DNA of 63,972 nt, the filler included, from Reclinomonas americana ATCC 50394 (lineage: Eukaryota): the NCBI GenBank assembly GCA_048213135.1. It is 15 parts of 15 records of this genome, joined end to end, with 100 filler letters (N's around TTAATTAATTAA, not from the genome) between each part and the next. Parts side by side here need not be neighbours in the genome. Positions count along the whole stretch, not along the records: positions 1 to 5,316 come from AFZH01019705.1; positions 5,417 to 17,057 come from AFZH01019706.1; 13 more parts are not named here. One strand, 5' to 3'. The notes under the pieces are model-generated. The model saw nothing but the letters and a program-made list of their open reading frames with translations. It was not told the DNA's origin and did no database searches. The translations under genes were made by a program, and so were the position numbers. This document shows, piece by piece, positions 231-43,183 of the stretch; within the stretch, counting starts at the first letter, position 1; every line of letters starts with the position of its first letter.

Positions 231-3200
231 ACCAAGGAGACGGCGACACCACCGGCACCGGCGGCTCGCACTGGTACCTGGGCATGAACCTGAAGCGCGT
301 GGGACAACGTCTCGCCGCTCGCGGTCAGCAAGTGCTCAACCTGGTGTTCGAGGGCCCCGAGAAGCGCTTTCGTCGTCTCTTCGGCTTTGGTCCCGAGGAG
401 AAACTCTACGACTCGTTCTCCTGCTCCTACGTCAAGGGCATTCAGCGCACAGGCGTTCTGTTCGTGTCGGCCAACTATCTGTGTTTCGATTCGCGTTTGT
501 TTCGGTGAGTGTGTCTTTCACTTTCCAGTGGATTGGACGCTGGTATTTACACTGTCGTTCAGCAACGACCACTTTGTGCTAGAGCTGCGCGAGATCGAGG
601 AGGTCAAACGCCGGAGCACGCTCGGTGTGATTCCCGACGCGCTCGACATTACGATGAAGAGTTGCGTCGTCGTTGTCGTCGTTGCTTGCTTGCTTGCTGC
701 TCACTCACCCGCTCACTGAGAACTCCCACAGGCGGCAAGCACTACGTGTTCTCCTCGATGTTGTTCTCTCGCGAGAAAGCCATGAGTCTGATCCTGCGGT
801 CCATGGCGGTGGCACGCGATCGCGAGCTGGAGGGCACCAGCGCCGAGGCCGACGAGGAGGTGGAGGAGGTGCAGGAGGAGGAGCTAAGCAAGTTGTGTTT
901 CTTCACTAGCTCTCTCCCTCCCTCCTCTCATTGTCGCTCACACACCTCCCCCAACGGTTGCAGTGCTGCTCACGTCTGTCTTGTGCCGCTTACGGCTCCT
1001 GGTGCCGCTCGAGCGTGCATGTTTCGTTTCCAGAGTGCCGACCCGTCGGTGGACGCGTCGACACCCATACGCTCGTCGAGCATCATGTACTTGGAGCATG
1101 TGGAGACGGGGTACGTGTGTGATATGGGGCATGGGGGAAGGGGAACCACTCACACACACACACATACTTACCGTGTGGCATCAGGTATGCCTTGCATCCC
1201 GACGTGCGTCTCGACATGGCCTCCGCCGCGGCGTTGTCGGCCTCTGGTGAGTGAGGATGAAGTGCGGTGAGGCGAGGTGCGGTTATTGTCTCTCACTCTC
1301 CGTCAACGCAGACCCTTCGTCCGTGCGACGCGGCCTGGTGGTGGCCATTTACTGCCTCACCTCCAAGATGTACCTGCGTGTGCAGCGTGAGCACGAAAAC
1401 ATTGACGATGACGACGATGACGACGACGAGGCTCCACGCAACGGCGACGATGGGGTGCGTCATCTTGTCACCGTTTTGTCTGCTGCCCCCCATTCATCTC
1501 TGCTCGACAGGGCGACGGCGACGGCCACCAGCAACGCAATCTCGGTCCGCTGCGCACCACCCTCGGTCCCTCGGCTCCCATGCCGTACTCGCGCGCATGC
1601 TTGTTCGAGTTCCTGCGACCAGACGACATTGCTGCGCTCCGTCGTGTCGAATGTTGCGTCGTCACTGTCTCCACAGCATGCAGAAAAAAAACACTGTTGA
1701 TTTTTGTTTTTTGTTGCTCCACAGACGAGCAAAACCGCTCCGACGGCAGCGGCATGGCACGCCTCTCTGCCAACAAGCCAACACTGCGACGCGGTCGCGA
1801 GGTCAATTTCGGCAATCCCGCTGCCGCCATCTTGAAGGGCCTGGAGGTGTTTGAGTGGGGCACCACCTCGCGCTCCGTCACCATCTCCGACGTTGACCGC
1901 GGCAAGATTCGGCGCATGGGCGAGTTGGCGGCAATCAATGCCAACCCGTCGGCGTCGATCCGCATGCGCAACCGCATGCACATCAGTTTGGTGCAGGGAC
2001 GCGGCAATGCACGCACGGAAGACGTGACCGAGTCGCCGTTGATGGCGAGCTCGTACCAAAAGAACATTCGCCCGCGTCCCGGCAGTCGACGCATCGGCAA
2101 GCATCGCATGGCCGCCGCCCTCGCTCTCTCGAGCTACGTCTCGATCGCCAGTCAAGCGGTGCGTGACAGAGTGGATGGCTGTCACTGGCAGGAAATGTGG
2201 CGCTGACTGTGTGTGTGCTTACGCAGACGGCCGGCATGTACCTGCCCATTGGATTCCCCGAGGTTCGCACAGCTGGCCAGTTGCTTGCGCTGTTGAAACC
2301 GGAGGCTGCCGATGGCGTGCGGTATGTTTGGTGCAACCAACAGTGCTCCCTTTTGTTGTAACTCATGGTGCTCGCAGCCTTCGATCCCTGGACAAGCGGC
2401 TGTATATTGAAATCAATCAGGGACGCGACGGCTTTTCCGTGATCCAGTTCCGCGGTCGCGATGGTGCGCTCGCTCTTGTCTGCTGATTGTTTGGTTGCCG
2501 GTCTGTGTCGGTGCTGACTCGACTGGGGTGCAGGCAAGCGCGGTAGCACCCTGACGGCGTCGTCCGAGGGCTACCGATTCGAGGTCGTGGTTCTGCCGTC
2601 GTCTCCGTCGTATTACCAGGACTTTAAGCTGCGACCAGGAGGTGCGTCTGCATGCATGCCTGCTTTGCCTAACCGAGCGGAGCTTACCGTGTGATGATGC
2701 GCCGACAGCCAACATGACCACCTCGGTCAATTTTGTGGATCCCGACAATCTCAGTCTGTTCCTGCCCGAGGGTGAGCGGCGTCCGCACACCGGCTTTATG
2801 TTCTCGCCACCCCTATCCAGAACGGCACTGACGGCACCCATCGAGAACTGTGAGCGATTGATTGTTCAAGTTGTTATGCAGTTGAATGTTGTGCTCACGT
2901 GACTGTCATGTGCAGTGAACCCTGTGGACCGGCTGTGCGGTGGCTCCACGGTTCGCCCACACGCAGAACGCATGTTCCGCATGCACACGGTGCAATGGAA
3001 GCGTGCACAAGCCGTCGACGACATTTGGTGCGACTGCCTCCATCCGCGTATTCGTCGCCGACACTTGTCGTCTCACCGACATGTCATTGCAGGGAGGTGT
3101 CGGCCGTCAACGGCGAGTACACTGAGTTTGCTCGACAGGCAGCGTACGCTGCAAGGCACATTACCTTTTACGTCATGAACTGGCGCGACTTGCTGCGGAC

Positions 3201-5446
3201 AGCGGCCCTGGGGGAGCAGCTGACCATTCTCGAGGACCACGTGCGGGTGCGTACTGCGCCAGCGATGTGCGTGTTACAGTCCTCAGCGCTCACCCTGCGA
3301 ATATGTCAGGGCCTGCGGCGACTGCTGTCGGTGCACACGGGCGACGCGAGCAGCACCAGTGCCATGTGGGAATTGGTGAACCCCGTGCAGTCCCGTACGT
3401 CAACATTTATCATCATTCCTTTTCGTTGCATGTTCTCTTGATTCAGAAACATGTCACTCTCCGCAGGCACCGAGGACGAACTGGTTCTCCGTGTGGCGTG
3501 GCGTCAGCGAGTGCTTTCGCAGCTGAACATACCCGACTTGTTGATCAACTTGCTCTTCCTGTTGCAAGTTTCGTGTTGACCGTCGTTTCGTGTCGCACCA
3601 CATCTCACCTCCATCGTGGCACAGAGCGAGCTGCACTTGGATTTCAAGCCGATTATCCGACAAGTACTGTTGCTGCTGGCCGACCTCTCCTTCCGCTACC
3701 ACGTGGTCGCCTTCCAGTGCCTGCGTTTGTTTGGTATGCTTTCGCGAGTGCATGCTGTGTGTGTCGTGTCGTGCCGTGCGAACTCATTGTGGCGCCAGAC
3801 TTTTTGAGGCGGTTCATTCAGGACCCGGACACGCACGTGGAGTGCGTGCATCTGCTGCGGACCATGTTCACGGCAGACAGCCAAGTGGCGCGTGGCATCA
3901 CGCAGTCCTCGGTGAAATTCCTCATGGGAGTTGCGTGACGACATGCTTGTTGCTTGAGCCATTTATTGGCTGACGACGGCAACTGTGATGCACAGCTGGC
4001 GTGGTCGGCAACCGATGTCAGTCGTGGCATTCTGCGCACCCTCCAGGCCATGTGTCGGCATGGAACACAAGTTTCGTATTCACCTCACCCCACCCAGAAA
4101 ATGTCACTTGCCTCATTGCTGTCTCTCGCAGGCCTTCTTCTCGAACCAATTGACGATTGGTCTGGAGTTGCTTCAACCTGCCAACCTCGATCTGCACCGA
4201 GTCTACGTGTTCCAGCACAGTATCCCGTCGGTGGCCACTGCCGGCGGTGTGATTGTTGCGCTGCTGTTATTCTTCTCCAGCACCGTTTGTGCATGCTGGC
4301 GACTCACCGAGTTTTTTTCTCGTACACAGCCGCTGCGTACGTTCCTCAACCCCGACAAGACGGAGACGTCGCGTCTGTTTGAGCATCACGTCCAGTTTAT
4401 GCGCCTGCTGACAGAGCTGACTGCCGGCCAGAACCGGCGATTCTTGGCGTTCCTGAGGGTGTGGCTTGTGCTTGTTTCGCAGGGACGTGCCCTTTTTTTT
4501 GTCTCACGCTCACTTCCTTGTTCACCAGCACTCGTATCCACTGCAAGCGCTCTTCTCAGTCATGCGCGACGAGCATTTGCACGTGTTTGGCACGCGCTCT
4601 TGTCTGCTGCGCTCCGCTTTGCTGCAGTTCATTGCTGGCTTGTATGCCAAGCATCGAGAGCTGCACGACGTCTCTCACGTGCGTGCTCACTTGTTGCCGA
4701 CACGTCTACCGCTTACTGGTTGATTGACAATGCTTCTTTTCAAAAGGCCTCCACCTGCGGGAGCATCCACTCGTGGCCGGCGGAGGAGGTGCTGGTGGAC
4801 ACACCGTTTGGAACCCTGTGTGCGTTCTGGCGAGAGCGAACTCGGCGAGACATGTTGCGTGCACCTCCTCTTGGTCACTCGCATTCTCTTTCCTTCTCAC
4901 ACGCATGTGCACACACAGGGTCAATCGCAGCACTGCCGCCCCGCGTTCTTCAGGTGGCCTGGCTGTCCAGTTGCGTGGCAGCTCACTCACCCGCGAGGGC
5001 ATGTCGTGCACCTTCCTCACTCGACTGTGCACACTGCACAGCCTGCGCGCGGACAACAAGACCCTGCAGGAGCTCGTAACCTGGCTCGGCAGCGAGGTCC
5101 GCCGCGTGCTGGAGCGCGTCGGCACGCTGTCTCCGGAAGACGATGCCGTCGTCATTGAGTACATGCTCGGGTTTGTGGTGCAGGCGCTGGCGTTCCTGGC
5201 CGACTACTACGATGCATTTGCGCGCTACTCGGTGTCGGTACGTGCGCTCCAGTTTCCTTGCTTTCGTGTCTCCATTGAGATTGCTCATCCCGTGACTAGC
5301 TGCGACTCGACGACCGNNNNNNNNNNNNNNNNNNNNNNNNNNNNNNNNNNNNNNNNNNNNTTAATTAATTAANNNNNNNNNNNNNNNNNNNNNNNNNNNN
5401 NNNNNNNNNNNNNNNNGTTGTTCGTTTCGTTTCGTTTCGTTCTTCT

Positions 5447-5513
<67 letters not shown>

Positions 5514-8500
5514 GTCGCCATGCGCAGAGTTGCGTGACGTGTTGGGCGGCTCGGCCAACGATCCACTGGACAGCCCGTGGTACGACGAAGAGGTGTCGAA
5601 TCGCGAACGACGTGCCTACCGCACCGGTCCGGTGTATCGTGTGTGTCTCGCACTCGCCACACAGTTGTGCCGTCTCGGAATCACGGTGGAGGCGCGCACG
5701 ACAACCAACGCGGTGGCTGCGTTGTGGGGCGCCTTCCTCATCTTCCTCGAGGACCAGGAGCGCCGTGTGCGCAGGCAAGTCCGCGCGCGTTCCCGTCTAT
5801 TGTGCTCTCCGCTCATTCGTGACTTGTGGCGCACAGCATGGGCGTCGATTTCGGCGAGCTGCAGCACCAGACCAGTTCACGTGCGGCACTCACGCGCTTG
5901 CTGAGCGAGGCACGACAGCAGTACGATGGCGGCCGATCGGCGGCCGACAGTCGTTACATGGCCATCTTTGAGCGCGCGGCCGGTATTCGAGTGACGAGGT
6001 CTGCCCGAGATTCTCGTCGCACGGAGGGAAGGAGGTGGCTTCTCACACTAGTCTCTCTACAGCATCCCGGCGCAGACGCTCGAGGGCCTCTTTGATCTGC
6101 AGGACGTGACGCTGGGCGAGGTGGCATTCCGGTACATGATGAGCCGGCGGACTCACTGGGCGCGCATGGCGCGCGCCACGGAGAACCTGAACGTGCTGAT
6201 GGGCGGCAACACCGTGTACCTCTTCGAGGAGACGTTTGCGCAGGCGCAGTATCTGCGTGGTGCGTCTCGATGCACGTGACCGGGGAATTGCACCTGTGTG
6301 CCACTCACTCCCTCTTATTCTCCCCTCGTTGCAGATCTGGTGCAGGCCGGTATCGCAGACAACATGCGGCCGATTTCCACCATTCTCGTGAGGTGGCACG
6401 AGAAATTGTTGACGGCCAAACGGCGCGACGACACGCTGAGTGTGGTGCAGGACGTGATGCACAATGCCGGCGTGGCTCGTGAAATGGCCGAGTTGTACCG
6501 GGCGACGCGCGTGGGACACATCGAGTCACTGCGCAACAAGTGCTTCCAGGTGTTTGTGTTGTACATTGAGAATCACGACGGCAACACGCACGAAATTCAA
6601 CCGCTGCTGCCTGATTTCCTCGACGAGCCAGGTTTCGTGCACATTTGCGCGGCACTCTTCGTCGTGCTGTGTCGGGTCTGACCCTACCTTTCCCCCCAAA
6701 TGCAGGCATTGATGACAGCAAGGGTCCGCTCGGCTCGCTGCTGACGCAAATGGCTCGAGTGTGTCACCTCGAGGTGGCCGGCAACTTCATCATCGAGTCG
6801 GTGACTGACCGCCTGCGACAAGTGGCCGAGGCCAATGCCGGCTACATGCATCACTTGCGTGCCACGGCAGCCGTGATGAGCGCCGAGGATGCGGTGCGTC
6901 GTTGCTGTTGCTGCTGTGACTTGCTCTGTGTCTCCATGGCTCACCTCCATTGCGCAGGAGGCTGCCTCTGCGTCCGTGCATTCGTCGCGCTCTGCCGGCC
7001 GCCTGTCGCCTGTGTATGCACACATGCTCACGTCGGTGTGTGCCAACGAAGGCCCTCATCAGCGAGCATTCCAGGTAAAGTCGTGCGTGGTCTTTGCCGA
7101 TTTATTTTTCCTTGCTGTGCTAATCCCAGACATGCTGCATGCAGCTGCGAGTCGCTCGCTTCTTTGTCCAACATCCGGGCATGGTGGCCGAGTACCTCAG
7201 TGGCTTCCGCAACTTTGTGCGCCTGATTACTTCCATGACGGATCCGTCTGCCGGTGCGTTGTTGCTGTTCCCCCACTCTCCTCCCCGCTCTCCCTCCGTT
7301 GACCTGGTGCCTCGCAACGCGCAGACAAACTGTGGACCTCGGAGCGGTCGTGGTTGGACACTGTGAGTTTCATCAACCTCATGGCCGTGGTGGGCGCTCG
7401 TGGCAACGAGGAAGCTCAGTCGTTGACGTGCCGCTGGCTCCACCTCGACGAGGTGGTGTACGCGTTGACCGAGTGTCGCGCGTGGATGCCGGAACCTCTG
7501 TACACTTCACTGTGGAAGTTCCTGTTGCACAATGTGTTTTCGCGTGATCTGTCGCTGTTTTCGCTGGAGGAGTTGCGTCGGTTGCTGTGTTGCTTCTCCC
7601 TCCTTGCTTGCTTGAAGCAATCGGCTAACCGCCTGTGCAGGTGGAAGGAAATCCACGCACTGCTGCAAGTCACCTGTTCTTCTCTCCTCGACGTCATTGC
7701 GCTGTGTTCAGAGGATGATGGTTTGTGTGGGTTGGCTCGCACCATGTGTGTGAAACCGCACGATTGTTCATGCAGTCGCGCAGGCATCACGGCAATCATG
7801 CTGTCCGACATTCCTCTCACATCGTACATTATGCCGTGCTTCCGTCGCGTCCTTCGTTTCTTCACGCCTCGCTCCAAGGAGAGCACAGCGGTGTGTGTCT
7901 GTGTCGAGCGGTGTACTCGCGCATGTGAGCGCGGCGTCTCATACTCTCTTTCTTTCCATCCTCTGCCATTGCAGAATGGAGACGCAATAGATCCGTTCCG
8001 AGTGTTTGTGGCTGGTGATCGGCGTGGTGATCGCATGCGTGATGCGGAGATCTATCGGCCCGATCCGTCCACCACCTCATTTGCAATGTCTGCCGACGGC
8101 GGGCGTGCTGCTGCGTCGGTGGCGGCCACGGCCGCTGCTGTGGAGGAGGCGCGTGAACGCACAGCCTCGTGGAAGGTGCTGCTGTGCCAGATCTCCCTGT
8201 GTGTGGCCGCCCTGTCGGCTTGCTGTGCCAAGGAGGAGGGCATTCGCACGTACATGGACCGTCTGCTGGCCGATGTTGCGCTTGCGTCTTTTTTTTTATT
8301 TTGCATGATTATTTGTGTGCTGATGTTGATGCGGACGCAGGTGGCCAAGGAGCGCGCCACCGTCAAGCAACCGCAGAGTCTCGAGGAGATCTTGCGACAG
8401 CTGCATATGGATCCGGCGTCGGAGGTGACGGACTCGGAGGAGGATTCGGTGCTCGACGTGGACAACATTCATGTGGGCGATCACGACGGCGGAGGCCAGG

Positions 8501-11500
8501 GACGGGCGGCACCCACCATGCAGTTCACGTTGTCGGTCTTGCAGAACGTGGACGACGTGATGCGCATGGCCAACAAGAGTGGTGAGGAGTTGTTGGGGGA
8601 GGGCGTGGTGATTGGCAGCACGTGCTGACGGCTTGGTATGTGCCGCAGCGCACCGCGTGCGCCGTGCGGCCTCGGTGGGGGCAGGGGCTGCGGCTGAAGG
8701 AGAGCGTCGCGGATCTGTGTCGCCGCACGTGGTGGCCGGCAGTGCCGCTGCTGTCGGAATGAATGGTGGCGAGGAGCGTGTGCCACTTATTCGCGCCACG
8801 TCTCCCGAAGGTGAATCATCATCCCGATCACGCAGTCTGTCTCTCTCTCTCGCGACTTACCGTGGTTTGTTGTACAATGCAGGAGAATCACCAGTGGGCA
8901 TTGGTAGACCGCGAGTGCACACGGTGGTGCATCCGAGTCGTGCGAATGGCTCCATGAACGGGCGCGCTGGCCCACCTCCTGCTGCCCCGCCACCGTGAGT
9001 CGTGGCCGACAGCTTGCTCATGTAAGGTATTGACACTGACTGGCTCTTGCAGTGGCGGTCGTGTGGACATGGACTATTTGCTGCCGGACCACATTCGGTC
9101 ACGCATCGCCACTGGGGACGACGCTGCGTCGGCATCGCATTCCTTGCGCGAGCGTCGGCTGTCGTCGCAGTTGCATTTCCCCCACGCCTTCCACCAGGCT
9201 TTTCTGTCTCTCTCTGACGCATTTCGGTATTGCTGCTGCAGCATGGTGACACCGGAGGACATGATGGTACAGGGTCGTCGTCGTCGCGCCACGGTGGTGA
9301 TGCCCGCCGGCAGTGAACCGCCCATGCTGCCTCGGCGCATGCCACCGCCCATGGAGGCGGATTTGATGATGGAGCCGCCGTCGGAGAGGGCGCGACGTCT
9401 CTCCGATGCTCCCATGGTGCTGTCGTTGGTCGTGCAGACCTCTGACGCTCCCGTCGACCACGTGGATGAGATGGACGATGAGGCGTCACGACCCATGTCG
9501 GCTGTGCCGCGGTGGATGTTGCGTTTTTGTTCTCGGGTACATGTTGTGTTGATTTCGTCGCTCACTCTTTCTCTTGACACAGCACCTCGGTGGCCCCGGT
9601 TGTTGACCGAGTGCTCTCCGCATCGTCGCGACTGGTGCTTCCAGACACACTCGACGACATGTTTTTGAACGAGTGGGTCGACATGTTGTATCGCGCTCGT
9701 GAGCGCACCGAGTCGCTCAATATGCCGGACGATGTGGCCAATGTTATCGACCGCGTCTTGTGGTGGTTCGCCTCGTGCTCTGTGATGTGGGAAAAGTAAG
9801 TGTCCAGAAACCACACGCTCATTGCTGCTGTGACAGGTACGAGTCGACGGAGCGCGTGCAGGGCCAGTTGCGGCGGCTCCAGGCGCGTCCCACCGAGCTG
9901 ATCACGGCATCACGAAAGACAGCCTCGGCCGTGAAGGAGACATCGGAAGATGGTGTGTTGTGTGCATCAAACCCTTGCCTCGCGTCTCCAAAGAGAGAAA
10001 GTGTGTGTGTGTGTGTGTTCACTCTGTCGCCTGCAGTGGTTCACGTGTCGGCCTCGTTGTTGACACTGAGCGCACGTCCCGACGAAGACAAGGTGTTCCG
10101 CGATCAGTTGAGTACATCCATGACAAAGGTGAAACATCGCGGGCTTCTCATTGCTGCTGTTCGCGTGCCTGTGCAGTCTCGCCACCATGTTGTCGAGCGT
10201 CAAGCGGTCGGCCGCCGCGCAAATCCAGTCGGAGAAGGCCGTGGCCACCAACGAACTGGGTGCATTCCAGAAGCGCAACCTGTTCTACTTTGTGCGCAAC
10301 GCAACGTTGCTCAGTCGTACTGCGCGAAGCGATCCGGAAGCGCGCATCTACGTGGAAACGGTGCTCGACATTCTCAGCACATCGCAAGGCCTGTGGACCT
10401 CTTCTGCTTCATCGGGCACCAGGACAGGAGGCGGAGGTGGTGGAGGTTCCGAGGATGATGCGCATTCAGACTCGGAGGTTTGGGCGACTTGTGGCGACGA
10501 ATCGCAGTCGATGATTGTTGTCGCTCATCCCTCTCTTACACACTCAGTACGTGTCACTGATTATGACCGAGGTGCTTACGCTTCTGCATGAGCATCTGGA
10601 CGACTCGCGCTTCACCGGTCGTGTGCTGCGCGCCATTGAGAATCTTCTCAGTGGCTCGGACGAGAAGACCAAGCGAGCCATTCTGCAGACCAGCGATGAG
10701 TTGAGTTCACCAGATAGCACCACTCACTCTGTGCGATAGAATGCTCACTGCCAGCATGTTGCAGCGGTGCTGGCTTGCTGTACACGTGCGACCAACTGTT
10801 GCAGCGCGCTATTGCGTACATTCAGCACACCAAAGATCGCCTCGGCTTCACTGGTTCGTGGTGACCTGTCTCTCTGGTGCTCCTCGCTCTTTGTTTTGAC
10901 CAAATGCGTTCTGTCTGTTGACAGGCTTGTCACTGATTTCCACTGTGCAAGAGCGACTGAGCAGCACAGAGGTGCTGCTTGTGATTGAGAAGCTGTGCGA
11001 GGAGTTTGGTGAGGACGCGCAAGGAGCGTTGCAGACTGGGCGATTCAAGTTGCTCAGTCGCATTCTGGTGTACGCACGCGAGGTCATCATGCATGGTTTG
11101 TGGATGTGGTTATGCGCTTGTGTACATGTGGTTGTCTGTGTTCTGCGTGACTCACACACGCACACGTTCGTACGCAGTGACGAGCACGCAACGCCTTCGC
11201 GATTTTGAGGTCAACGAAGTCGTGCAGATTTTACGCACGGTCGAAAAGGTCAGAGCTTCATCCCCATCTCACACTCGCTTCCATCTCGCTTCTCACACAC
11301 TGCTTCATTGATGTAGACCATTCGTGGGCCGTACACGCGCAACTTGAAGGTTCTCATGGCCAACGAGCCGTTCCTGATGGCCCTCCGTGATCTGCTTGGC
11401 ATCTCGTTCCACTGGAGCGGCCTTGGTGCGGATATTGAGTCGCGCATGACTGCGCGAGCGCGGGCACGCAAGGCTGCGGCTGAGGCGGCGCGTGCGGAGA

Positions 11501-14003
11501 CGTTTGCATCTGTCACAAGACACAAAGCGGAGCGAGCGGACGATGCTGAGCTGCGCACGCTGACGGAGAATCTGTTGAATGTCACCAAGCAACGAGTGTC
11601 GCGCATTCAGCGACGTGTGTTGCTGACGGTGGTGGAGCTGACGACCATGTTTATGGAGGGCGGTGAGACGCAGCTGGCGCATGCCACCGTTCTGCGCCAG
11701 CTGGGTTTCCGCCGGCGCCTCAAGGCCCGCGTTGGCGAGTACAACCAGCTGCTGTGGCCACACCAGTCGTGGATTCCATTTGGCCGGCACGACCTCATGG
11801 CCACACTCAAGGAGGAGCGCCTGGTGCTCATCCGGGCGTGGAACTACCTGCAGTTGACCACGCACCACAGTACCCGTGAGATCGACTACCTGTCACCCAG
11901 TTGCGATGGCGGCACATGTGCAGTGCTGTAATTTGCTTTTCTCGCACTCTCTCTTTCTTGCTCACGATGCCGACATACAGGGAAGCAACGGTTCTCGCGA
12001 GAGAACTTGCTGGGCCGCGTGGAGGTCTTGCGCGGAGAGGACATTGAGGTGGTGTTCTTTGCCAAGGATGTGTCGAGTCGATTGCTGACAGCCGCCGACA
12101 AGAACGACATTGAGACCAAGGTCAACCGCGGCAGCGCAGCGGAGAAGTTGACGGATTTCGTCGACATGTCGCGTGATATGCATGCACGCATGAAATTCCG
12201 CGAGCGTTCGCAGCGCAGCAGTGCGCTGCAGTTCGCCAACACTCCCTGGGTGCAACGCGGCAGCGTGTGGCTGAGCATTCTCCTGACGGTGGCCATCAAT
12301 CTCGACTTGTTTATCAACTCGCCACCGGCGGAGGCGCAGCCGATCCACTTGATTATTCTCGGCGCACTGCTGCTGGTGAGCAGTGTCGTGGCCAATGCCT
12401 CGTACTGGCTCTCCGAAGCCATCATTGGCAGTTGCGTACGAGTGGAAACGAAGAGGAAGGAGATTGAGAAGTTGTTGTGGCTGACATGCTGGTGACAGGG
12501 AACGAAACATTCGAGAGATTCCGGCGCGCCTACAAGAGCAAGCACGGACCCAAGGCGGAACCGTCGAAAGTGGCGGCCACTGCTCGAAAAGTCAAGGCAG
12601 CCTTCAGTCGACTAGCCATGTACAGGTGTGGGCGTGCATGAGAGGGGGGGTGGCGGCTTGTTTTCCCCTCCGAGTGCTCACTCTGCGCAGGGCGCTGACG
12701 CTACTGTTTGCCATCCTGGGGCTGGCGGTGTCGCCCTACTTTTTCGCGTTCCACTTGATTGAGTTGGTGACTCGCACGCCAGTGCTGGTCAACGTGTTGC
12801 AGGCTGTCACCAGCAACGCCTACTCTCTCTTCCTCACGCTGCTGCTCGGCTTCTTGATCGTGTATTTCTACGCCATTATAGGCTTTGTGTATTTCGGCAG
12901 CCAGGTGAGACAGGCCGAGTTGCCTATATGTGAGGGCTGCTTACTGACAGGAGTGTGTGTGTGTGTGTGTGCGTCCGTGCAGTTGTCTTGCGACAGTATC
13001 CTCACATGTTGGGCCGTGATCATTGCACAAGTGCCGTCGGGCGGCGACCAACTTCGTGGTCTGCTGTCCGGACTCGGCTCTGAACTGCTCTTCCAGCTCT
13101 CCTTCTTCTTCTTCTTCATGATTATTCTGCTCAACATCTTCCTCGGTATCATCATGTTGCGTCCACCGACAGACGTCGTGTTGCAGTTGATTTCCTCGTG
13201 CTAACTTGATTCCACTCAGCGACTCGTTCGGCGCGCTGCGTGCGGAACGTGAGCTCATTGCCAAGGATCGTGCCGGCCGTTGCTTCATTTGCGATCTGCC
13301 TCCGCACGTGTTTGAGCGAGAGGTGCGTGGGCGGGCTTGATCATCACACGCATTTTTTCGGTCGCAGTGTCTGACGCAAAGTCGGCGCGCAGGGACTCAA
13401 CTTTCAAGATCACCGCACGCTCGAGCACAGTCCGTGGGACTATGTGCACTTTTTCTCGCGCCTGTGGAACGTGGAGGACCGTCGGATGCTCAGCGGCACG
13501 GAGCTGTTTGTCTTGGATCACATCGAGCAGGGCGAGATTGCGTTTTTCCCGAGCGAGAGGTGAGGCTGTGTGTGTATGAGGGACTATGCAGTGTCTGTGC
13601 GCACACACACTTACCTGCTGTCGGTGGTGGTGGTGGTCGTGCATGAAACCACAGATCGCAGCATCTGGAGCAGGTCGTTTCGCGACGCGGTGGCAACGCC
13701 GAGGCGGAGGTGGATGTGGCGGCCGAGTTGCAGCGGGTGCAGGAGCAGCTGGCCACCATGAACGATCGCGTAGGCCGAGTACAGGTGTCGCTACGCGGCT
13801 CCGACAACCTCTTGCGCGAGATCTCGGCCAACACGGCGCAAAAGTTCACTCTGCTGAACGATCTGGCCACGCAGGGCGCCGCCGCAGCCGCGGCCGCCGC
13901 AGCTGCCAGCGAAGTGGCCGACGACGAGACCGATGTGGTCAGCAGCATTCGTGCGCCGGCCCCGTCGTCGAGTCGAGGAGGTCAGAGGAGCGCAAGGCGG
14001 TGA
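231..14003 (+). CDS. ITPR: IP3-receptor/RyR-superfamily intracellular Ca2+-release channel with an N-terminal GRAM domain; about 55 introns, 5'-partial, crosses one assembly gap
   Basis: The spliced chain gives a GRAM domain (FRRLFGFGPEEKLYDSFSCSY...GVLFVSANYLCFDS) and a MIR-like HVETGYALH. RIH-like segments follow (RQRVLSQLNIPDLLINLL; ILRTLQAMCRHG..FSNQLTI), then GRVEVLRGEDIEVVFF. The channel region reads SPYFFAFHLIELV...LVNVLQAVT, SCDSILTC, LNIFLGIIIDSFGALR, then the C2H2 site CFIC...HRTLEH and a C-terminal coiled coil. Stop is TGA at 14001-14003. Confidence 0.9.
5317..5416. other. Artificial scaffold linker (N44-TTAATTAATTAA-N44), first of 14
   Basis: Identical 100-nt linkers with stops in all six frames start at 5317, 17058, 21297, 22777, 29166, 30881, 37835, 39691, 46912, 50428, 52448, 54311, 56084 and 62565. 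Confidence 0.98.
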
Positions 14004-15731: not shown

Positions 15732-16711
15732 ATGGCGTGCACTCTGTGGAACGAGGAAGACCCGCACGTGTTTGTGCTGCGCCACCCGCTCGCCGAGTAC
15801 CACCTCTCTCGCATTCGCGATGTGAGCACGCGGCCTCTGGTGTTCCGCGAGTCCGTCTCTGCGCTCTCCGCGCTGCTGGCCGTCGACGCGTGTGCCGACT
15901 TTCCCCTGCGCACACAGCCAGTGATGACGCCGTGCGGAGAGGCGTCGGGTGCACGCACACTCGACGGAACAATCGATGTCGTGCCCGTCTTGCGCGCAGG
16001 TAAACACACACACACACACTCTCTTCTCTCTCTCTCTTCTGACTCACTCTCTCGTGCAAGGCTTGGGCATGGTCGACGGTGTGATCAAGCTGCTTCCCGA
16101 CGAGTTCACCAAGATTCTGCATTTGGGCTTTGAACGCGATCATGTGACGTTGCTTCCGTCGACCTACTACAACAAGCTGGAGTTGCACGAGCGACCGGCG
16201 CGAAACATTCTCGTGGTCGATCCCATGTTGGGCACGGTATGCATGAAGAAAGGAAGAAGTCGCGCCCATTTGGGGTTGTTGTTGTGACCTCTCTTTGTTT
16301 GTTAGGGTGGCACGGCCAAGGAGGCGATTACGCAGATCAAGTCGTGGATTGCGGCGCGCATGGAGGGCATTGATTATACGCCATGCATTCGCTTCTTGTG
16401 CTTGGTCGGCTGCGATCGTGGTGTCAAGGTGATTCCCGGATATTGCATGACCATTTTTCCGCCCGCTTCTGTGCTGATTCTTTCTCTGTCTCCTGCTGGG
16501 AAGGCACTGCGCGAGGCGCATCCCGACGTGGCGATCTATGCGGCGGCCATTGATCCCATTCTCAATGAGCGCGGATACATTGTGCCTGGCGTTGCGTGAT
16601 CTTTGCCGCCGCTTTTTCTCACTTTTGCCTCACACTGACGACTCTCTTCCTCCACCTCCCCCGCAGCTCGGCGACGCTGGCGACCGCATCATGAACACGG
16701 TGACGCACTGA
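15732..16711 (+). CDS. upp: Uracil phosphoribosyltransferase
   Basis: HPL..HLSRIRD.ST..FRE, VPVLRAGLGM, PRPP-binding [13 protein letters not shown], and [17 protein letters not shown] across 4 introns. Confidence 0.95.
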
Positions 16712-16834: not shown

Positions 16835-19279
16835 TCAAGCAAACACATCCTCCAAGTCGACATTCTCCTGCTCCACATCCTCCATGGTGGTGAAGTTCAA
16901 GAAGTGCGCCGGCCGATGCAGCTCGTGGTAGAACGGCTTTGGTTGGTCGAGCACGAGGCCGTACTTGATCATTTCCGAGTACTTTTCTGCAAGGCGGGAA
17001 AAAGAATCATCAGCACACTGGCACAAACTAAAGGAGTGAAAAACACACCACCACTCCNNNNNNNNNNNNNNNNNNNNNNNNNNNNNNNNNNNNNNNNNNN
17101 NTTAATTAATTAANNNNNNNNNNNNNNNNNNNNNNNNNNNNNNNNNNNNNNNNNNNNAAAGGGGGGAGGTGGGAAAGGGGGGAGGTGGGAAAGGGAAAGA
17201 GAGAGGTGACAGGAGAGAGAGAAGGGGAGAGGAGAGGGAAATTGGGAAGGAAAGATATAAGACAGAGAGAAGGCGAGAGAGAAAGCGAAAGCGAAAGAGG
17301 AAGAGAGAGAATGAGGAAGAGAGAGAAAGGGAGAGAGAGAGAGAAGAAGAAGAGGAAGAGAAAGAGAGAGGGGGCAGAGATTGGGGATAGGGAGAAGGCA
17401 GAATGGAGAAGGGCTTGATGAGAGAAAGACAGGAAGACGGAAAGGAGAGACAGAGGAAGAAAAGAGTGGAGTGAGAAGAGGGCAGGCCGAGAGAGGTACA
17501 CGAGTTCGCGAAATGTGCTCGGTGGTGGACAGGTGGCGACACACAAAAGTATGCAGAGCGACAAACTTCAAAGCAAAGCTCACCTTGACCAACGGCACAT
17601 CGAGGGCACGTCGTGTGCGACCCGAGCGCTTGTCGAACGGATGCGGAGCCCAGTACAGCGCAATGCCATTCGCCGTGTTGTCCGTGTACAGCGGAGTGTC
17701 GGCAAGGAACGGAGAGATCTCCTCTGGCAGGTAGAACTGCACAGGCACGGCCCAACACACGTCAGCTTCTCATTCTTCCTCTCTCTCAATCTCTCTCTCT
17801 TTCACACACCTCATCATCGTCGGCATACTCGCCCTCCTCCTCCTCCATCACGTGCGCGTACACACGCGAGTGCTCGGTCTTGTACGCCGAGATGGGGTTG
17901 ATGATCGGGTCAAAGTAGAACGCGGGCAGGAACGGATCGCCGGTCTTGATGTAGCAGAGCGATGGGTAGTGGTACCAGGTGAGGTGCACCTTGCGTGGCC
18001 GGTTGTTGTAGAGGTACGGGAACGCGATGCGGTACTCGGTACGGATCTGGTGCCGAATAATGATCTTGTTGATGTCGTTGAACTCGTTCCAGTCCTCGTC
18101 CGTGTCCACGTCGCGGAACAGCGGCTCGTACTTGGGGCCGCCGGGAATGGCCATCGACAGCGCCTTGGCGGTGAAGAACGACTTGGGCTCGAACAAGTAA
18201 AAGTAGTTGCGGTCGATGGTGTCGGAGAGCAGCTGACCCGACAGGCGGAACAGCGTGGCCATCACCGGCATTGGCAGGTGCCAGTGGCGGTACGAGGGAC
18301 CATTGATGAACTTGGTGTCGGAGAGCGGGTGCTGGTCGTAGAACCAGTCAATCACAGCCGCGTCTTCTTCCTCGTCCAGTTGCATCTGGATCGGGTCGAG
18401 TGGTTGCACGTCCTGAAATAGAAGGGAAAGGGGGAAGAAGGGAAAAGGGAGGTGAGTGAGCAAAAGTGCCGAAGAAATAGAATGTGAGGGCGAGGGACAA
18501 GAGAAAAAGAGAGCAGAACGAATAGAGTGAAGAACGGAACAAATGAGGAGGGAGCAAGGTACACGAACAACGAGAGGAAGAAACCAGAAACGTTTGAGGC
18601 ACAAGCAGAGGGAGCACAGCATGCAGAGCACAAACAAACAAGTGAAGAAATGAGCCTTGTTGCGCTGTGCACTCACCAAGACGTTCTCGCCGTAATCCAG
18701 CGGCGGCTCCTCATCGTCAAACGGTGGGAAGCGCATGCGCTTAAAGTGGCGACGATCACGCTTCTCACGACGCATGACAATCCACATGGTGGCCCACTGC
18801 GCGATAAACACGGGCTCGACCACCTTGGGCGTCTCGTTGATAAAGGTGATGGCGCCGGTGACGTGGTACAGCGCCTTCACGTCGCGAACTTGCTCCCACG
18901 GCATCGGCATGTTCTCCAGAACCTTGGTGATGGCGTGTGGCATGTACTTGAGCGCGCCCAGGTACACACGCTTCTCGCGACGGAACTTGCGCGAACTGTG
19001 AATGGGGGATAGGGGAGAAAGAGGGGCAAAGGGACGGTGCGAGTGAGACACAACAAATACGTCAAGAAGGGATGATGACAAGAGACGAGCAGAGAACAGG
19101 AGTACGAAGGGCGACAATCATAGTTTGAGCAACAACGGGAGTGGCGTAGAGAGCAGCGAGAAAGACGAGGAGAGATGCAGGAGACGAACAACGACAAGGT
19201 GAGAGCAGGTAGGGGGAGAGGAAAGGAGACGACGATTGATCAGTCACAGAGGCAGGTGGAACGAGCAGAGCTGAACAGC

Positions 19280-19314
<35 letters not shown>

Positions 19315-20290
19315 GGAGACGAACAGCGATGAGATTAAGGACTGGAGAGGCGAGAGAAGAGAGCGAAAGGAGACAACGAGAGTCTGAACAGGCACGGAAG
19401 TAGCCGGGAAAAGCAGCGCAGAGCATAGAGACAGAGAGAGCAAAGAGAGCAAGATGCAGAAGACGAACAATGACGAGATGAGCACAGAGGAGAGGGCGAA
19501 CGAGACGATGTGCACAGTCAAAGAGGCAGGTGGAATAGCAGAGTTGAACAGAGCAGCGCGGCGCAGAGAGAGCGCGAGAGAAAAGAGAGAGAGAGAGAGA
19601 GAGAGAGTGAGAGATGCAAGAGACAAACAACAACAAGGTGAGAACAGAGGAGAGGGCAAGGAGACAATGCTGAACAACCACAGGGGCAGGTGGAAAGAGC
19701 ATGGAGAGTGAATGGAGTTTTCCTTCAGTACATGCAATCTTGCTTCTCACCTCATATCACCATGGTCCTTCATGATCTTGCGCAAATGCTCCGGAGGCAT
19801 ATCCTCCTTCGGCACCTCACTGTAGCCGAACTTGCGCTTGTCGTGGTATCTGCAAGCAAGCACACACACAAGAGAAAGAAAGTGAGAAAGAGTCTCTCTC
19901 TCTTTTTGTGCGTGTGTATGTGCAAGAGCACTCTGCGACATTACCTCTTCTGATTCATCTTCTTCCACTTTTTGGCTGCACGTGTGTGTCAAAAGAGGCA
20001 AAGTGAGCGTGGACATGGACCTGCGCACTTTTACGCGCGCACTCTTTACACGCACCTTTCTCCTCCAGTGTCATTGGCTGTCCGGCGGGCGTCAATGCCG
20101 CATTCGGCATTGCTGCACCAGCGTGCATGCGCGTTGCAGCCTGTGCGTGAGACAAGTGTGTGTGTCACAAGTGAGACATTTCATGCTTTTTTTCTTTGTT
20201 TTGTTTTGTTTGTGCGTTGCTGCGTACCGGAGGCATGTGCATTCCATACGGAGTGCCGCCCATGTCCATCGGCACAGCGCGTGGATCCAT
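16835..20290 (-). CDS. PRP8: Pre-mRNA splicing factor Prp8; N-terminal ~400 aa and extreme C-terminus present, middle lost in the gap at 17058-17157
   Basis: [97 protein letters not shown]-terminal exon reads [17 protein letters not shown]...DVFA*. Confidence 0.97.
19010..19700. repeat. Degenerate tandem repeat inside a Prp8 intron
   Basis: Recurring gagatgcaggagacgaaca and cagtca..gaggcaggtggaa..gcagag.tgaacag units. Confidence 0.7.
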
Positions 20291-30987: not shown

Positions 30988-31041
<54 letters not shown>

Positions 31042-33132
31042 TGTGGGGGAACTGAGTCCGACTGTTGATGTTTATGTTCTTGCTTGCCTTTGTCCTCTCT
31101 CTCTTTCTCTCTCCCTCCCCCCTCTCTCTATCTCTCTGTGTGTGTGTGTGTGTGCGTGTGTGTGTTTCACTCTGCGACTCACCAGTCCTCCTTTTGCACA
31201 GCGTGATCCACCGCGCTCGCGTCGGAGGGTTGTCGACGATAAGGTTTGTGATATGCATGTCCCTTTTCATGACTCGCTCTCACTCTTTTTTTTTTTTTTT
31301 TGCCATGTGCGCAGGAGGGCGTCGACGCGTTGATGGGTTTCGCCAAGACGCTGTTTGGTGGGTACCTGATCCTCGCCTTTTTGCTTGCCCCCCTCTGTCT
31401 CTCTCATTTTTGCCTGTAAACAGGACCACCACCGGCGCGGCGATCAGCGCCGGGCGCGCAACCACGCGTTCCCGTGAGGAGATGGCGTGCACAGCGCATG
31501 ATTCGACGACGCGATCTGGACAAGGAGCTCTTTGATACGCAACGTGGCTTCCCCGTGCACGAACACAGCTTGCAGTTCGTTGACAAGGCGTTTCTCAAGT
31601 TTCACGAGAGCTTGCTTGTGGGTGGTATGACTGGACTGCCGCGGGGGGTCGGCGCGTCGTCGGCTGGAGAGATGGTGCGTTTGGTGCGACAGCGGTGTTT
31701 TGTCTCTCTGATGTCGATTGTCGTCCCTGTTTACGTGGTCAGAATAGAGAATGCCTCTCGTTCATCACGTCTCCTCTCGCTGCACTTTTGTATTCGTGAA
31801 GCCGGGAACACGGCGCTTTGAGCTGTGAGCTGCTTTGTGGTTTCTTGCCTGTCTTCCTCTGCACGTGAGCCCTTTCGTCATGCAGCTCGATCGTCCTTTT
31901 TCTCGCTTCCTTTCTTTGTATGTGCGTTCTCCTGTGCTTTGGTCATCAGTAACACGCGTTCATATTGTCACGTGACTTTTCGCCATTTTTCTTGCCTCTC
32001 TTTCTCTGCATGTGACCTCTCCTGTCGTCAACAACGCGCATTCTTTCTGTCACGCGATTTCGCCGTTTCTCACCTCTCTTCCTCTGCATGTGTGCGGTCC
32101 TGTGCTTTGGTCATCAGCACCGTGTGTCAGGGGCCTTTTCTCGCCATTTTCTCGCCTCTCTTCCTCTGCACGTGAACTCTCCTCTCATTAGCAACGCGCG
32201 TTCGTTCTTTTTCTCGTCTTTTTCTCGCCTCCTATCCTCTGCATGTGAACTCTCCTGTCGTCAACAACGTGCGTTCGTTATTTTTCTCGTCATTTCTTGT
32301 CTCCCTTCCTCTGCACGTGAACTCTCCTCTCATTAGCAACGCGCGTTCTTTCTGTCACGTGATTTCGCCGTTTCTCGCCATTTTCTCGCCCCTTTCCTCT
32401 GCATGTGTGCGGTCCTGTGCTTTGGTCATCAGCACCGTGTGTCAGGGGCCTTTTCTCGCCATTTTCTCGCCTCTCTTCCTCTGCACGTGAACTCTCCTCT
32501 CATCAGCAACGCGCGTTCGTTCTTTGTCGACATTTTCTTGTCTCCCCTCCTCTGCATGCGAACTCTCCTCTCATTAGGAACGCGTGTTTGGTGCCTTTCT
32601 CGCCATTTCTCGCCTCCCTTGCTCTGCACAACGCGCGTTCTTCCTGTCTCATGACGTTTCGCAATACTATCGCCTCCCCTCCTCTGCACGTGTGCTCTGT
32701 TGAGCATCGCCTGTGCCATCCCTTCGATCATATGCCTCTCTTTCCCTTCGTCACCACTCATGCCCGTAAAACACAGGGTGCCGGAAAATCACGATTCGGT
32801 CGCGCTGGCATGCATGCAGAAATCGCCTTCTTTATCCACACTGCCACGAAGCAGCAAGGTGCCCCTGCGCACGCTCTCCTGTCGTCCCGCAGATTCCTCG
32901 TCTCTTTGTGACTTAACGTGCACGTCCTGCAGGAGCGGCGGCAGCAGCAGCAGCAGCAGCAGCAGCCTCGGCGTCAAAATCCAAACCCGCCTCCGCAGCA
33001 GCTGGGTCGTCATCCCACGGCGACGCACTACCCCTACCGCCCCCACCACGACTCGACCGGCGGCCAATGCCCGCACCACCCGTATTCCAGCATCACCCAC
33101 ACGGAGCGGTGGCGCGTCCACCGCCCGGCTGA
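30678..33132 (+). CDS. Hypothetical low-complexity protein (multi-exon)
   Basis: ATG exon MESSSNAKKRM...RKRRAAGEDAEADELSDDFDQ|gt with a possible NLS, followed by phase-compatible exons at about 31315, 31424, 32777 and 32933. No domain recognised. Confidence 0.45.
31850..32700. repeat. Intronic tandem repeat (~70-85 bp monomer, 315-bp higher-order duplication)
   Basis: The ~105-bp block ctctgcatgtgtgcggtcctgtgctttggtcatcagcaccgtgtgtcaggggcc... recurs 315 bp apart. The ctctgca[ct]gtgaactctcct core is repeated many times. Confidence 0.85.
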
Positions 33133-41232: not shown

Positions 41233-43183
41233 ATGGAGAACGCGGTGCCGCTTGTGTGGGACCAGCGACGAGAGCTGCGACCGCTGTTTGCCGACTGTCT
41301 GGCGCCACCCATAGTTACTCATGGCATCGCCGTCAGCGTCACTCTCTTTTGTGACTCATGTGCATGGCAGAATGGATCGGTGTGGTATCTCGTGGAGTGG
41401 GGCTGGTGGCAGAGCTTGAAGACGTATCTCATGCTGTCGCTGCCGGACTCGGATGAATCCGAGCCTCCTTGTGGTGCGTGCGTATGTGTGAGAGAGAGAG
41501 AGAGTGCTGCTGTTCTCCACGTTCTGTTTCCCACTCGTGGCACGCAGTCAACCCTGGTCCTGTCGACAACCAGTCGCTGATTGCACGAGTGTGCGACAGT
41601 GGGTTTGCTGTGTTGAAGAACAGCTGCAGCTACGGTGTGCATTTTGGACTTGTCACCGAGGCATTGTGGCTGAAGCTCGTCGCATGGTGCGCCTATTGTG
41701 ACAGAGCGCGCGCGCTCTCTCTGTCGCTCGCACGCTCACTCTGTTGCGCTCCAGGTATGGCGGCGGTCCGGCCATGCGACGGGAAGCGCGAGTGGTATCG
41801 CCGGAGGGCGTCGCGCAAGTGGAGGTGCAGCCGCTGTGTCTTCAGTGCCGGCTGGCGCGACGGCCGTCGGAGACTCGTGACTTGGTGTTCTCCAAGGCCG
41901 CCACGCTGCGCGAGGTCATGGAGGGCATCAAGGCGTCGTTTGGCGAGGTCGAGAACGCTGAATCGCGCCTGTGGTTGTTTGACGGGCGCTTCTCGTATCG
42001 GCAGGTGCCCGCGCGCTCGATGGATAGATGCTTGTACTCGATGCACGGCTTGCCGGTCAGCGATGTGTTCTATGTGGTCGACACGATGGCAGACGACGGC
42101 TCGTGGACTCTGGCCGATGGCCGTGCCGGACCACCACGTACGTGAGATATCGCACTGCATCGCTCTGTGCTTGCCGCATTCACATGTTGCTCGGGGTTTT
42201 TGTGTGTACGTGCAGCCGCGATGGCTGCCCCTAGTTATTCGGGAGCTGGCCCGAGCATGGGGCGCGGAATTGGGTTCGGTTTCGGTCGTGGGCGTGGTGG
42301 TGGGTTTGGCAGAGGATTCGGGGCCGCTAGCGAGGTGGTGAACAATCGTGGAGATTCAGGGCCGTCGCTACTGTCGGATCCTCGAGCTGCTTTGCTCGAC
42401 ATTAGGCGACAGGGTCTGGTCATGATCAGCAGGCGGGTGGCTGCCGGCAGCGGCAACGGCGGCGGCGGCGGTGGCGGCGAGAATGAGATCGACGGTGCGC
42501 GTGGGTCACACTCTCCACGGCGATATGGCGATGTGCGTTTTAGTCCACCATCTCCACCACGGCATCCACCGTCCCCATGGCGTCCGCCATCTCCACCTTT
42601 CCCGCCACCCTCGGTCAGCGCGTTGGCGTCGGAGGCTGGCCCGCCGCCTCCACTGATGTATCGATTACCGAATCCATCGCCTGCACCTGGAAATGATCGT
42701 GAGCGGAGCGTTGATAATCCATTTGCCGGCAGCAATCAGCCTTCCGGTATCCCTCCATGGCGTATGGCCGGTGCTGCTGCTGCTGCTGCTGCGGCGGCAG
42801 CAGCGGCAGCGGCATCGGCGGCGACAGCGGCGGTTGGAAATGAGCGGAGCACCTTTGCCGGCGGCATGCGCAGCGTTCCAAACCCGTTTGCGTCTCTCGC
42901 CACTGCAGATGCGCCGTCGGAATCGGAGGATGCGAATGTACTGGCCTTGCGAGACCGGCGATTGTGGATGCACGAAGTGCAGCTGAGAGCGACAGTTGAC
43001 GCTCACGAACGCGAAACTCGCCGGTTACGTGAGCAGTTGGAGGAACAGAGACGAATCACGGCGGAGCGCGTGGCGGAGAATGAGGCACTGCGGGCGCAGT
43101 TGAGTGTGGCACAGACTACTATTGCGGTGCTGGAAGCGCAGGTTCTCCGACTGTCGGCGAACCGTGGCGGTGGGACACAGTGA
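41233..43183 (+). CDS. DUSP + ubiquitin-like domain protein (USP4/11/15 N-terminal module) with a Gly/Pro-rich tail and coiled coil; no peptidase domain
   Basis: WYLVEWGWWQSLKTY...NPGPVDNQSL...FGLVTEALWLKLVAW|YGGGPAMRR...VEVQPL...FSKAATLREV...RLW...DGSW. Confidence 0.85.

Follow-up and report, generated by a model that had tools for sequence, protein, structure and literature searches.

A frequent GTTGCGT class of 5′ splice sites tied to the last exon base in draft contigs of Reclinomonas americana

Introduction

Does the last base of an exon decide which kind of 5′ splice site (donor) follows it? The question is raised by a very intron-rich gene at positions 231–14003 (plus strand) of a 63,972-base stretch of Reclinomonas americana ATCC 50394 (GCA_048213135.1). 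This whole stretch, the window hereafter, consists of draft-assembly contigs with 14 spacers between them, each of the form N44-TTAATTAATTAA-N44, and has a G+C content of 49–64%. In textbook splicing, the helix between U1 small nuclear RNA (snRNA) and the donor is tied to the cut site, and the exon's last G belongs to the signal. An original prediction, made from the sequence of this gene, held that its donors follow one 7-mer, G-K-T-G-C-G-T, with two cut positions chosen according to the base at exon position −1. Here we show that about a quarter of the donors form a second, sharply defined GTTGCGT class tied to the −1 base. We then ask where these introns are cut and how U1 might read them.

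Results

The donors were classed by intron bases alone. Those with T at +3 and at least four of five matches to T-R-H-G-T at +3 to +7 are called shifted, and those with at least three of four matches to R-H-G-T at +3 to +6 canonical. The 55 curated donors of the large gene comprise 19 shifted, 31 canonical and four weak or other donors (GTCTGC, GTAAAG, GTTTGG and GTCAGA) plus one GC-AG donor. Shifted donors follow A (12), T (6) or G (1) and never C, whereas canonical donors follow G in 26 cases and C, A or T in three, one and one; the four weak donors and the GC-AG donor all follow G. Shifted donors are therefore found after 1 of 32 exons ending in G (position 6632) and after 18 of 23 ending in another base (Fisher p = 3.9e-9). 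The hand tally behind the original prediction (about 33 of 34 donors canonical after G, about 16 of 21 shifted after other bases) is borne out in this gene, as are the exception at 6632, the fit of both classes to the single 7-mer and the association that a contingency test, run here on predicted introns, was expected to reveal. Three plus-strand donors after G (7721, 10854 and 11096) read GTTTGT or GTTCGT and are otherwise in the canonical register, so T at +3 is not sufficient for the shifted class.

The association holds up when the set of introns is narrowed. For 20 of the 55, no second donor that would keep the frame lies within 15 bases; nine of these are shifted (one after G) and 11 are not (nine after G; p = 0.005). 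At 12 of the 19 shifted donors the intron has to be removed, owing to an in-frame stop or to a length not divisible by 3; A precedes eight of these donors, T three and G one. Furthermore, an unsupervised two-component mixture fitted to positions +3 to +9 split off a T-G-C-G-T class (25–42%) from a G-C-G-T class unprompted.

The rest of the window (14051–63972) served as a replicate with 73 donors. Twelve are shifted (−1 A in six, C in four, G and T in one each), 52 canonical and nine of other types. The exon ends in G before one of the 12 shifted and 36 of the 52 canonical donors (Fisher p = 1.5e-4). Each of the 12 shifted introns ends in CAG, carries a motif like CTNAY and is needed for an open frame. 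The converse rule, that bases other than G call for a shifted donor, is weaker here (11 of 29, against 18 of 23 in the large gene), and false predictions may inflate the canonical rows without G in the replicate. Pooling both sets gives 31 shifted donors among 128 (24%) and the table [[2,29],[74,23]] (p = 2e-12): 74 of 76 donors after G are not shifted, and 29 of 52 after other bases are. Twenty-four of the 31 shifted introns are required for an open frame (12 of 19 in the large gene and 12 of 12 elsewhere).

The shifted class is far less variable than the canonical one. Its consensus has G at +4 (90%), C at +5 (87%), G at +6 (97%) and T at +7 (84%), compared with G at +3 (72%; A 12%), C, T, A or G at +4 (40, 33, 24 and 4%), G at +5 (94%) and T at +6 (80%) in canonical donors. 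At −1, shifted donors have A in 58%, T in 23%, C in 13% and G in 6%; canonical donors have G in 75%. Both motifs are also overrepresented in the window when compared with dinucleotide-preserving shuffles: GTTGCGT occurs 28 times (14.8 ± 3.9 in shuffles) and GGTGCGT 27 times (13.0 ± 3.6), counts reached by none of 100 shuffles in either case. The introns themselves are spliceosomal GT-AG introns with a median length of about 68 bases, a branch-like CTNAY motif and a CAG end.

The gene and the donors on which the comparison turns are listed below, with a slash at the exon-intron junction. Every site named originally exists (505, 2850, 4679, 6632, 8995, 9796 and, on the minus strand, 39521), save that the donor placed at 3394 starts at 3395; the five canonical donors without G at −1 and the shifted donor after G at 39521 stand as exceptions to the rule.

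231–14003, plus strand: very intron-rich gene with an N-terminal GRAM domain and a C-terminal IP3R/RyR-type channel; 55 curated introns and one across spacer 5317–5416
505, plus strand: donor present as originally predicted, chosen over 483
661–667, plus strand: shifted donor A/GTTGCGT, intron 661–731; retention gives an in-frame stop
892–898, plus strand: shifted donor A/GTTGTGT, intron 892–963; acceptor 1035 also possible, with the same donor
1653–1659, plus strand: shifted donor T/GTTGCGT, intron 1653–1724; curated model
3568–3574, plus strand: shifted donor A/GTTTCGT, intron 3568–3624; alternative T/GTTGCAA at 3561 likewise has +3 T after a base other than G
3930–3936, plus strand: shifted donor A/GTTGCGT, intron 3930–3995; stop if retained, no other GT-AG pair within 15 bases
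4071–4077, plus strand: shifted donor A/GTTTCGT, intron 4071–4131; frame-shifting length of 61, no alternative pair
4255–4261, plus strand: shifted donor T/GTTGCGC, intron 4255–4329; curated model
4854–4860, plus strand: shifted donor T/GTTGCGT, intron 4854–4918; curated model
4970–4976, plus strand: shifted donor A/GTTGCGT, intron 4970–5041; curated model
6632–6638, plus strand: shifted-type donor after G, G/GTTTCGT, intron 6632–6705; stop if retained, no alternative pair
7572–7578, plus strand: shifted donor A/GTTGCGT, intron 7572–7640; curated model
8275–8281, plus strand: shifted donor T/GTTGCGC, intron 8275–8340; 66 bases, stop-free, placed by splice signals only
9170–9176, plus strand: shifted donor A/GTTGCAT, intron 9170–9241; curated model
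9518–9524, plus strand: shifted donor T/GTTGCGT, intron 9518–9582; curated model
10107–10113, plus strand: shifted donor A/GTTGAGT, intron 10107–10176; curated model
10700–10706, plus strand: shifted donor A/GTTGAGT, intron 10700–10764; curated model
11900–11906, plus strand: shifted donor A/GTTGCGA, intron 11900–11980; frame-equivalent alternative T/GTGCAG at 11918
12431–12437, plus strand: shifted donor A/GTTGCGT, intron 12431–12498; stop if retained, no alternative pair
13156–13162, plus strand: shifted donor T/GTTGCGT, intron 13156–13219; homology-checked against five IP3R/RyR homologues, ungapped over the junction
16591–16597, plus strand: shifted donor C/GTTGCGT, uracil phosphoribosyltransferase (UPRT) gene, intron 16591–16666; exon aligned to a solved enzyme
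39515–39521, minus strand: shifted-type donor after G, G/GTTGCGT, ABC transporter gene, intron 39521–39463; frame-shifting length of 59, no alternative pair
2850–2855, plus strand: canonical donor without G at −1, T/GTGAGC; curated model
3395–3400, plus strand: canonical donor without G at −1, C/GTACGT; curated model
4679–4684, plus strand: canonical donor without G at −1, C/GTGCGT; curated model
8995–9000, plus strand: canonical donor without G at −1, C/GTGAGT; curated model
9796–9801, plus strand: canonical donor without G at −1, A/GTAAGT; 41-base intron, alternative C/GTGCTC at 9775

The position of the cut is set by protein homology at three of these donors. In the UPRT gene, exon 16504–16590 aligns end to end with residues 168–196 of a 208-residue solved enzyme, ending ...YIVPG, and the Pfam match of this upstream reading frame stops at profile position 196 of 206. 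The intron (16591–16666; GTTGCGTGA...CCGCAG) is followed by an exon that reads LGDAGDR..., which we take to be the family's conserved C-terminal motif, with a stop 14 codons later. The junction at 13156 lies inside ...LGII/IDSFGALR..., a segment that five IP3R/RyR relatives span without gaps. In the ABC transporter gene, G/GTTGCGT at 39521 (minus strand) reaches a CAG after 59 bases, with the LSGGEQQR signature next; the ABC_tran match starts just past the acceptor and no other GT-AG pair preserves the frame. Because homology fixes these three junctions, cleavage at shifted donors is in front of the GTT, to judge from the encoded proteins, as originally proposed.

Also proposed was that a shifted donor frees the codon at the junction from splicing constraint. 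The codons do not bear this out: the large gene has A at −1 of 12 of the 19 shifted donors where codon-position composition predicts 3.7 (p = 4e-5), and G at one where it predicts 5.5 (p = 0.013). In the pooled set, G precedes 2 of 31 shifted donors, where about 29% would be expected (p = 0.002). Of five shifted donors in phase 0, three follow the codons CAA, GGA and CAA, even though A is just 8.9% of third positions in the gene. The constraint is thus exchanged rather than lifted. We also observed that T at −1 tends to follow A at −2, giving AT/GTTGCG in five of six cases in the large gene (1653, 4854, 8275, 9518 and 13156; the exception is ATT/ at 4255), a preference that a simple shifted register does not explain.

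Intron lengths show a further difference in the large gene. Ten of the 19 shifted introns (892, 1653, 3568, 3930, 4255, 4970, 7572, 8275, 9170 and 11900) are multiples of 3 in length, compared with nine of 31 canonical ones, and seven of the ten have no in-frame stop, so that the frame would stay open if they were retained. Regulated retention or chance could account for them.

Intron prediction

Introns were predicted with a dynamic-programming gene finder that avoids stops and weighs three-periodic coding statistics, a prior on intron length, and scores for acceptor, branch and donor. The donor score was restricted to positions +3 to +9, so that exon bases were never used. Parsing by stop avoidance with no signals gave too few introns (26). 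In versions that trained themselves, introns were fused, boundaries were displaced and the branch model moved towards CT repeats. When the signal models were set by hand and kept fixed, and the path was confined to one gene, the parse gave 55–57 introns in the large gene. It took a wrong frame at 483/505, 3757/3734, 12957/12905 and 1117/1111, and the GC-AG intron escaped it. Hand correction therefore adopted 505, 3734, 12905 and 1111 over 483, 3757, 12957 and 1117, and added 8275, 7721 and the GC-AG intron at 5775. Frame-equivalent donors were chosen by intron-side signals, ignoring the −1 base, and the intron across spacer 5317–5416 (donor 5238 or 5242) was excluded from the 55. For the replicate, gene-finder introns of at most 120 bases with a branch-like motif and a YAG end were kept (78), minus five with donors in GT repeats, leaving 73.

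The curated model is free of stops when spliced over 233–5237 and over 5530–14003, which ends at a stop codon. Intron removal restores the open frame in both blocks (1,137 and 2,101 codons). GT-AG ends are present in 54 of the 55 introns, and the remaining one, at 5775–5836 (plus strand), is likely a GC-AG intron (CAG/GCAAGT ... CACAG), the sole way found to join the flanking frames; GT-only parsing instead dropped 17 plausible codons. Doubtful introns are those at 4459 (two frame-equivalent rivals), 7075, 7721, 9796 (41 bases; rival at 9775), 11900 (rival at 11918) and 3568 (rival at 3561); at 892 the ambiguity concerns the acceptor. No donor passes between shifted without G and shifted with G in any of these cases.

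The large gene and its neighbours

In the large gene, exon 233–502 matches GRAM (profile positions 2–46 of 112, the match stopping at the exon's end) and exon 12692–12904 matches Ion_trans in a profile search. This pore exon had 720 matches among 1.84 billion representatives, and the long homologues carry RIH, RIH_assoc, Ins145_P3_rec, MIR and Ion_trans domains. Metagenome contigs scanned with the same exon contained no relative. Exon by exon, the gene itself yielded no match to a RIH, MIR or ligand-binding domain, and its IP3R/RyR relatives resemble it at the C-terminus only. The label of an IP3R/RyR-like channel is thus a fair one, judged by these domain matches. Junctions 12626, 12905, 13156, 13323 and 13560 agree with homologous proteins; most of the others lie beyond a homology check, since the likeness is limited to the C-terminus. 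The first exon in the window opens at an acceptor at 230, preceded by a C/T-rich stretch, which places the true start of the gene upstream of the window.

Further genes recognised by Pfam code for UPRT (plus strand, about 15732–16711), Prp8 (minus), RanBP1 and PIG-V (plus), an ABC ATPase (minus), a DUSP-domain protein (plus), a long WD40 protein (minus) and Spt20 (plus). Two UPRT introns (16000–16060 and 16430–16503, plus strand) end in AAG instead of YAG (...GCAAG/ and ...GGAAG/), as the conserved protein reading supports; the gene finder missed the latter. The Prp8 gene is interrupted by spacer 17058–17157, with N-terminal exons at 19851–17572 (residues about 41–427) on one side and the last 56 or so residues at 17005–16838 on the other. 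As these parts flank the spacer, its 100 bases stand for about 1,700 absent codons. The contig order in the window seems to be real, and other spacers, including 5317–5416 within the large gene, may hide exons as well. All four Prp8 donors seen (17572–19851, minus strand) are of the G/GTGAG or G/GTGTG type, and the exon ends agree with homologous proteins. Two Prp8 introns, of about 755 and 264 bases, are long next to the median of about 68 in the large gene.

Single-exon protein searches returned relatives of Prp8 from many phyla at identities of at most 72%. These searches did not find the window's own proteins, but their length limits exclude proteins the size of Prp8 or the channel, so absence from the collection does not follow. 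No snRNA gene, U1 included, reached the gathering score within the window. Weaker RNA-family matches there numbered just four, all microRNA-like (E up to 0.1); among them, sub-threshold matches to plant or animal microRNA precursors at 31007–31131 and 42767–42816 (plus strand; E 0.02–0.07) are most likely due to chance.

Discussion

How might the two donor classes be read? The common kind carries its signal, G/GTGCGT, across the exon-intron junction, and the second kind carries the same signal one base deeper in the intron, the second G being replaced by T (/GTTGCGT). At the second kind, U1 would then pair one base further downstream than usual. G+1 of the intron would occupy the usual place of the exon's G−1, U+2 would be a mismatch, and the bases at +3 to +7 (TGCGT) would fill the places of +2 to +6. 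The last exon base would come to lie where −2 normally does, a position at which A is able to pair. In the later spliceosome, U6, U5 and Prp8 would still cut before the sole available GT. We infer such a one-base-shifted U1 register for GTTGCGT donors and favour it, at about an even chance of its being right.

Support for the shifted register comes from the exon bases and from pairing energies. We calculated nearest-neighbour energies for textbook U1, taking its 5′ end from PMC4856993; the U1 of this organism may differ. For CA/, AU/ and GC/ contexts the shifted register gives −1.3, +1.9 and +0.9 kcal/mol, the canonical register +2.6, +4.1 and +4.5 kcal/mol, and a bulged-U register +2.5, +4.0 and +3.6 kcal/mol. 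The shifted register is thus ahead by 2–4 kcal/mol without G at −1, although all of these helices are weak. The original prediction called for this comparison, which comes out otherwise for GG/GUUGCGU, where the shifted register is worst (+3.1 kcal/mol, against +1.3 bulged and −1.0 canonical). Exon composition is suggestive. At −2, shifted donors match canonical donors at −3 (chi-square p = 0.98; both are T-poor) better than canonical donors at −2 (p = 0.07). The uniformity of the shifted class is also expected, since a weaker helix with an internal mismatch would need compensation elsewhere.

The bulged-U register is one rival. U1 would pair with G+1 and U+2 normally, one U of +2/+3 would bulge out, and GCGU at +4 to +7 would pair like +3 to +6, leaving the relation between cut site and U1 unchanged. 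Such a bulge has been validated for human sites (68 predicted, as described in PMC4856993), and it suits the two shifted-type donors after G (6632 and 39521), given the GG/ energies above. However, it should favour G at −1 for the extra G-C pair, as canonical donors do, and G precedes 2 of 31 shifted against 62 of 83 canonical donors. Nor does it give a role to the enrichment of A at −1, and its energies at sites without G are the poorer by the same 2–4 kcal/mol. We prefer the shifted to the bulged register because G at −1, which pairs in the bulged and canonical registers, is depleted, because A at −1, which pairs with U1 position 10 in the shifted register only, is enriched, and because of these energies; the bulge is in our view unlikely. 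An adapted recogniser, for which GUUGCGU and/or GUGCGU would be two cognate signals paired directly by a changed U1 5′ end, by a second variant of U1 or by some other factor, would explain why bases that textbook U1 cannot pair are so strongly preferred (+4 C in 40% and +3 G over A, 72% to 12%, of canonical donors; +5 C in 87% of shifted ones). Co-evolved U1 5′ ends are described for Entamoeba and Mastigamoeba (preprint 10.1101/2022.06.08.495308). The same preprint describes a standard U1 in Micromonas and Thecamonas, which nevertheless prefer a pyrimidine at +4, so that the +4 C preference needs no changed U1. We regard an adapted recogniser, too, as improbable.

An artefact or family effect would have the GTTGCGT introns be mis-called or stem from a single mobile family whose copies bring their own end with them. 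Seven of the 19 shifted introns in the large gene, the stop-free multiples of 3, would fit mis-calling. Against it stand the three junctions fixed by homology, the 24 of 31 shifted introns required for an open frame, and the branch-like motifs and CAG ends of all shifted introns, and we consider it very unlikely. A mobile, introner-like family was rejected, as the interiors of shifted introns are no more alike than others (mean local score 8.3 among shifted, 7.9 among canonical and 8.0 between the classes). U12-type introns were likewise rejected. Donors of the minor spliceosome have a long conserved RTATCCTT type, and the shifted donors read GTTGCGT.

Several observations weigh against the shifted register or against the data that support it. 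All introns are predictions, those of the replicate come from a gene finder with visible errors in the large gene, and the seven stop-free multiples of 3 are possibly retained. At −1.3 to +1.9 kcal/mol, compared with −7.8 kcal/mol for CAG/GUGCGU, the helix in the shifted register is very weak, so with textbook U1 a quarter of the donors would depend on almost no U1 pairing. The favoured C at +5 of shifted donors has no partner in textbook U1 in any register, and the +4 C and the +3 G over A of canonical donors pair with nothing. T at −1 (7 of 31 shifted donors) is unable to pair with U1 position 10, and the two shifted-type donors after G fit the canonical or bulged register better. Composition at −1 of shifted donors differs marginally from that at −2 of canonical donors (p = 0.05; A 58% against 30%), and shifted donors are as T-poor at −3 as at −2, which a shift alone does not predict.

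In a wider reading, which we put forward tentatively and with some doubt, the shifted U1 register, probably with a matching U6 shift, would be a regular, genome-wide second intron mark in this lineage. It would be used at about a quarter of donors under a separate rule for the exon end (A or T but not G), and each intron would encode a binary choice of register in its sequence. An adapted snRNA may accompany it. If true, a shifted register can serve as a main mode rather than an accident, and hundreds to thousands of natural cases would be available for how U6, U5 and Prp8 set the cut independently of U1. The organism would be a natural system in which to study, at scale, the place of U1 binding apart from the place of the cut. 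For gene prediction, a single weight matrix or the expectation of G at −1 would miss or mis-frame GTTGCGT introns. Such a genome would also bear on the limits that splice signals set to the junction codon (NNG against NNA).

Parts of this picture are already known: noncanonical U1 registers as exceptions, GTGCGT donors in Mamiellales and a +4 C preference in Thecamonas. A preference for C or U at +4 is described for Mamiellales (GYGCGY/GTGCGT), Thecamonas and Mastigamoeba (PMC2483917, PMC3879977, preprint 10.1101/2022.06.08.495308). The canonical class here, G/GTGCGT with a CTNAC-like branch motif, matches the consensus of these lineages, and R. americana is far richer in introns than the Mamiellales as described. 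The passages of these papers covered here mention no second, shifted class, and the words 'shifted', 'register' and 'bulge' have no occurrence in the preprint text. Our literature search found no account of a frequent GTTGCGT class tied to the exon's last base, with supplementary splice-site logos of Micromonas and Thecamonas, which possibly hold a +3 T subclass, lying outside the search; a text search for the motifs themselves returned primers and the like only. As far as the literature searched shows, the frequent, sharply defined GTTGCGT class predicted here, linked to the −1 base, would be new.

The closest parallels are human. Where a 5′ splice site is read in the shifted register, U1 pairs one base further downstream than usual and the partner of G−1 faces G+1 instead (Roca and Krainer, 2009, as described in PMC4856993 and PMC11162779). 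The bulge +2/+3 register (Roca et al., 2012; Tan et al., 2016, as described in PMC4856993) likewise consists of the consensus with an extra U after GU. It keeps G−1 paired, whereas G at −1 is nearly absent from the shifted class here. In the human STAT3 tandem donor, the helix between U6 and the 5′ splice site can sit one base off, at a single site and with artificial U6 (as described in PMC11162779). The GTTGCGT class would need a similar U6 shift if its +6 G and +7 U are to face U6 in the manner of +5 G and +6 U. The human work, in the parts of PMC4856993 and PMC11162779 that describe it, uncouples the U1 helix from the cut site by one base at a handful of sites only, and all validated noncanonical U1 registers together make up 1.5% of 201,541 human sites (PMC4856993). 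Like human shifted-register sites so described, the GTTGCGT donors would place G+1 where G−1 usually lies while the cut stays before the GU. Unlike those rare sites, they account for 31 of 128 donors (24%), with a sharp second consensus and their own −1 preference for A, then T.

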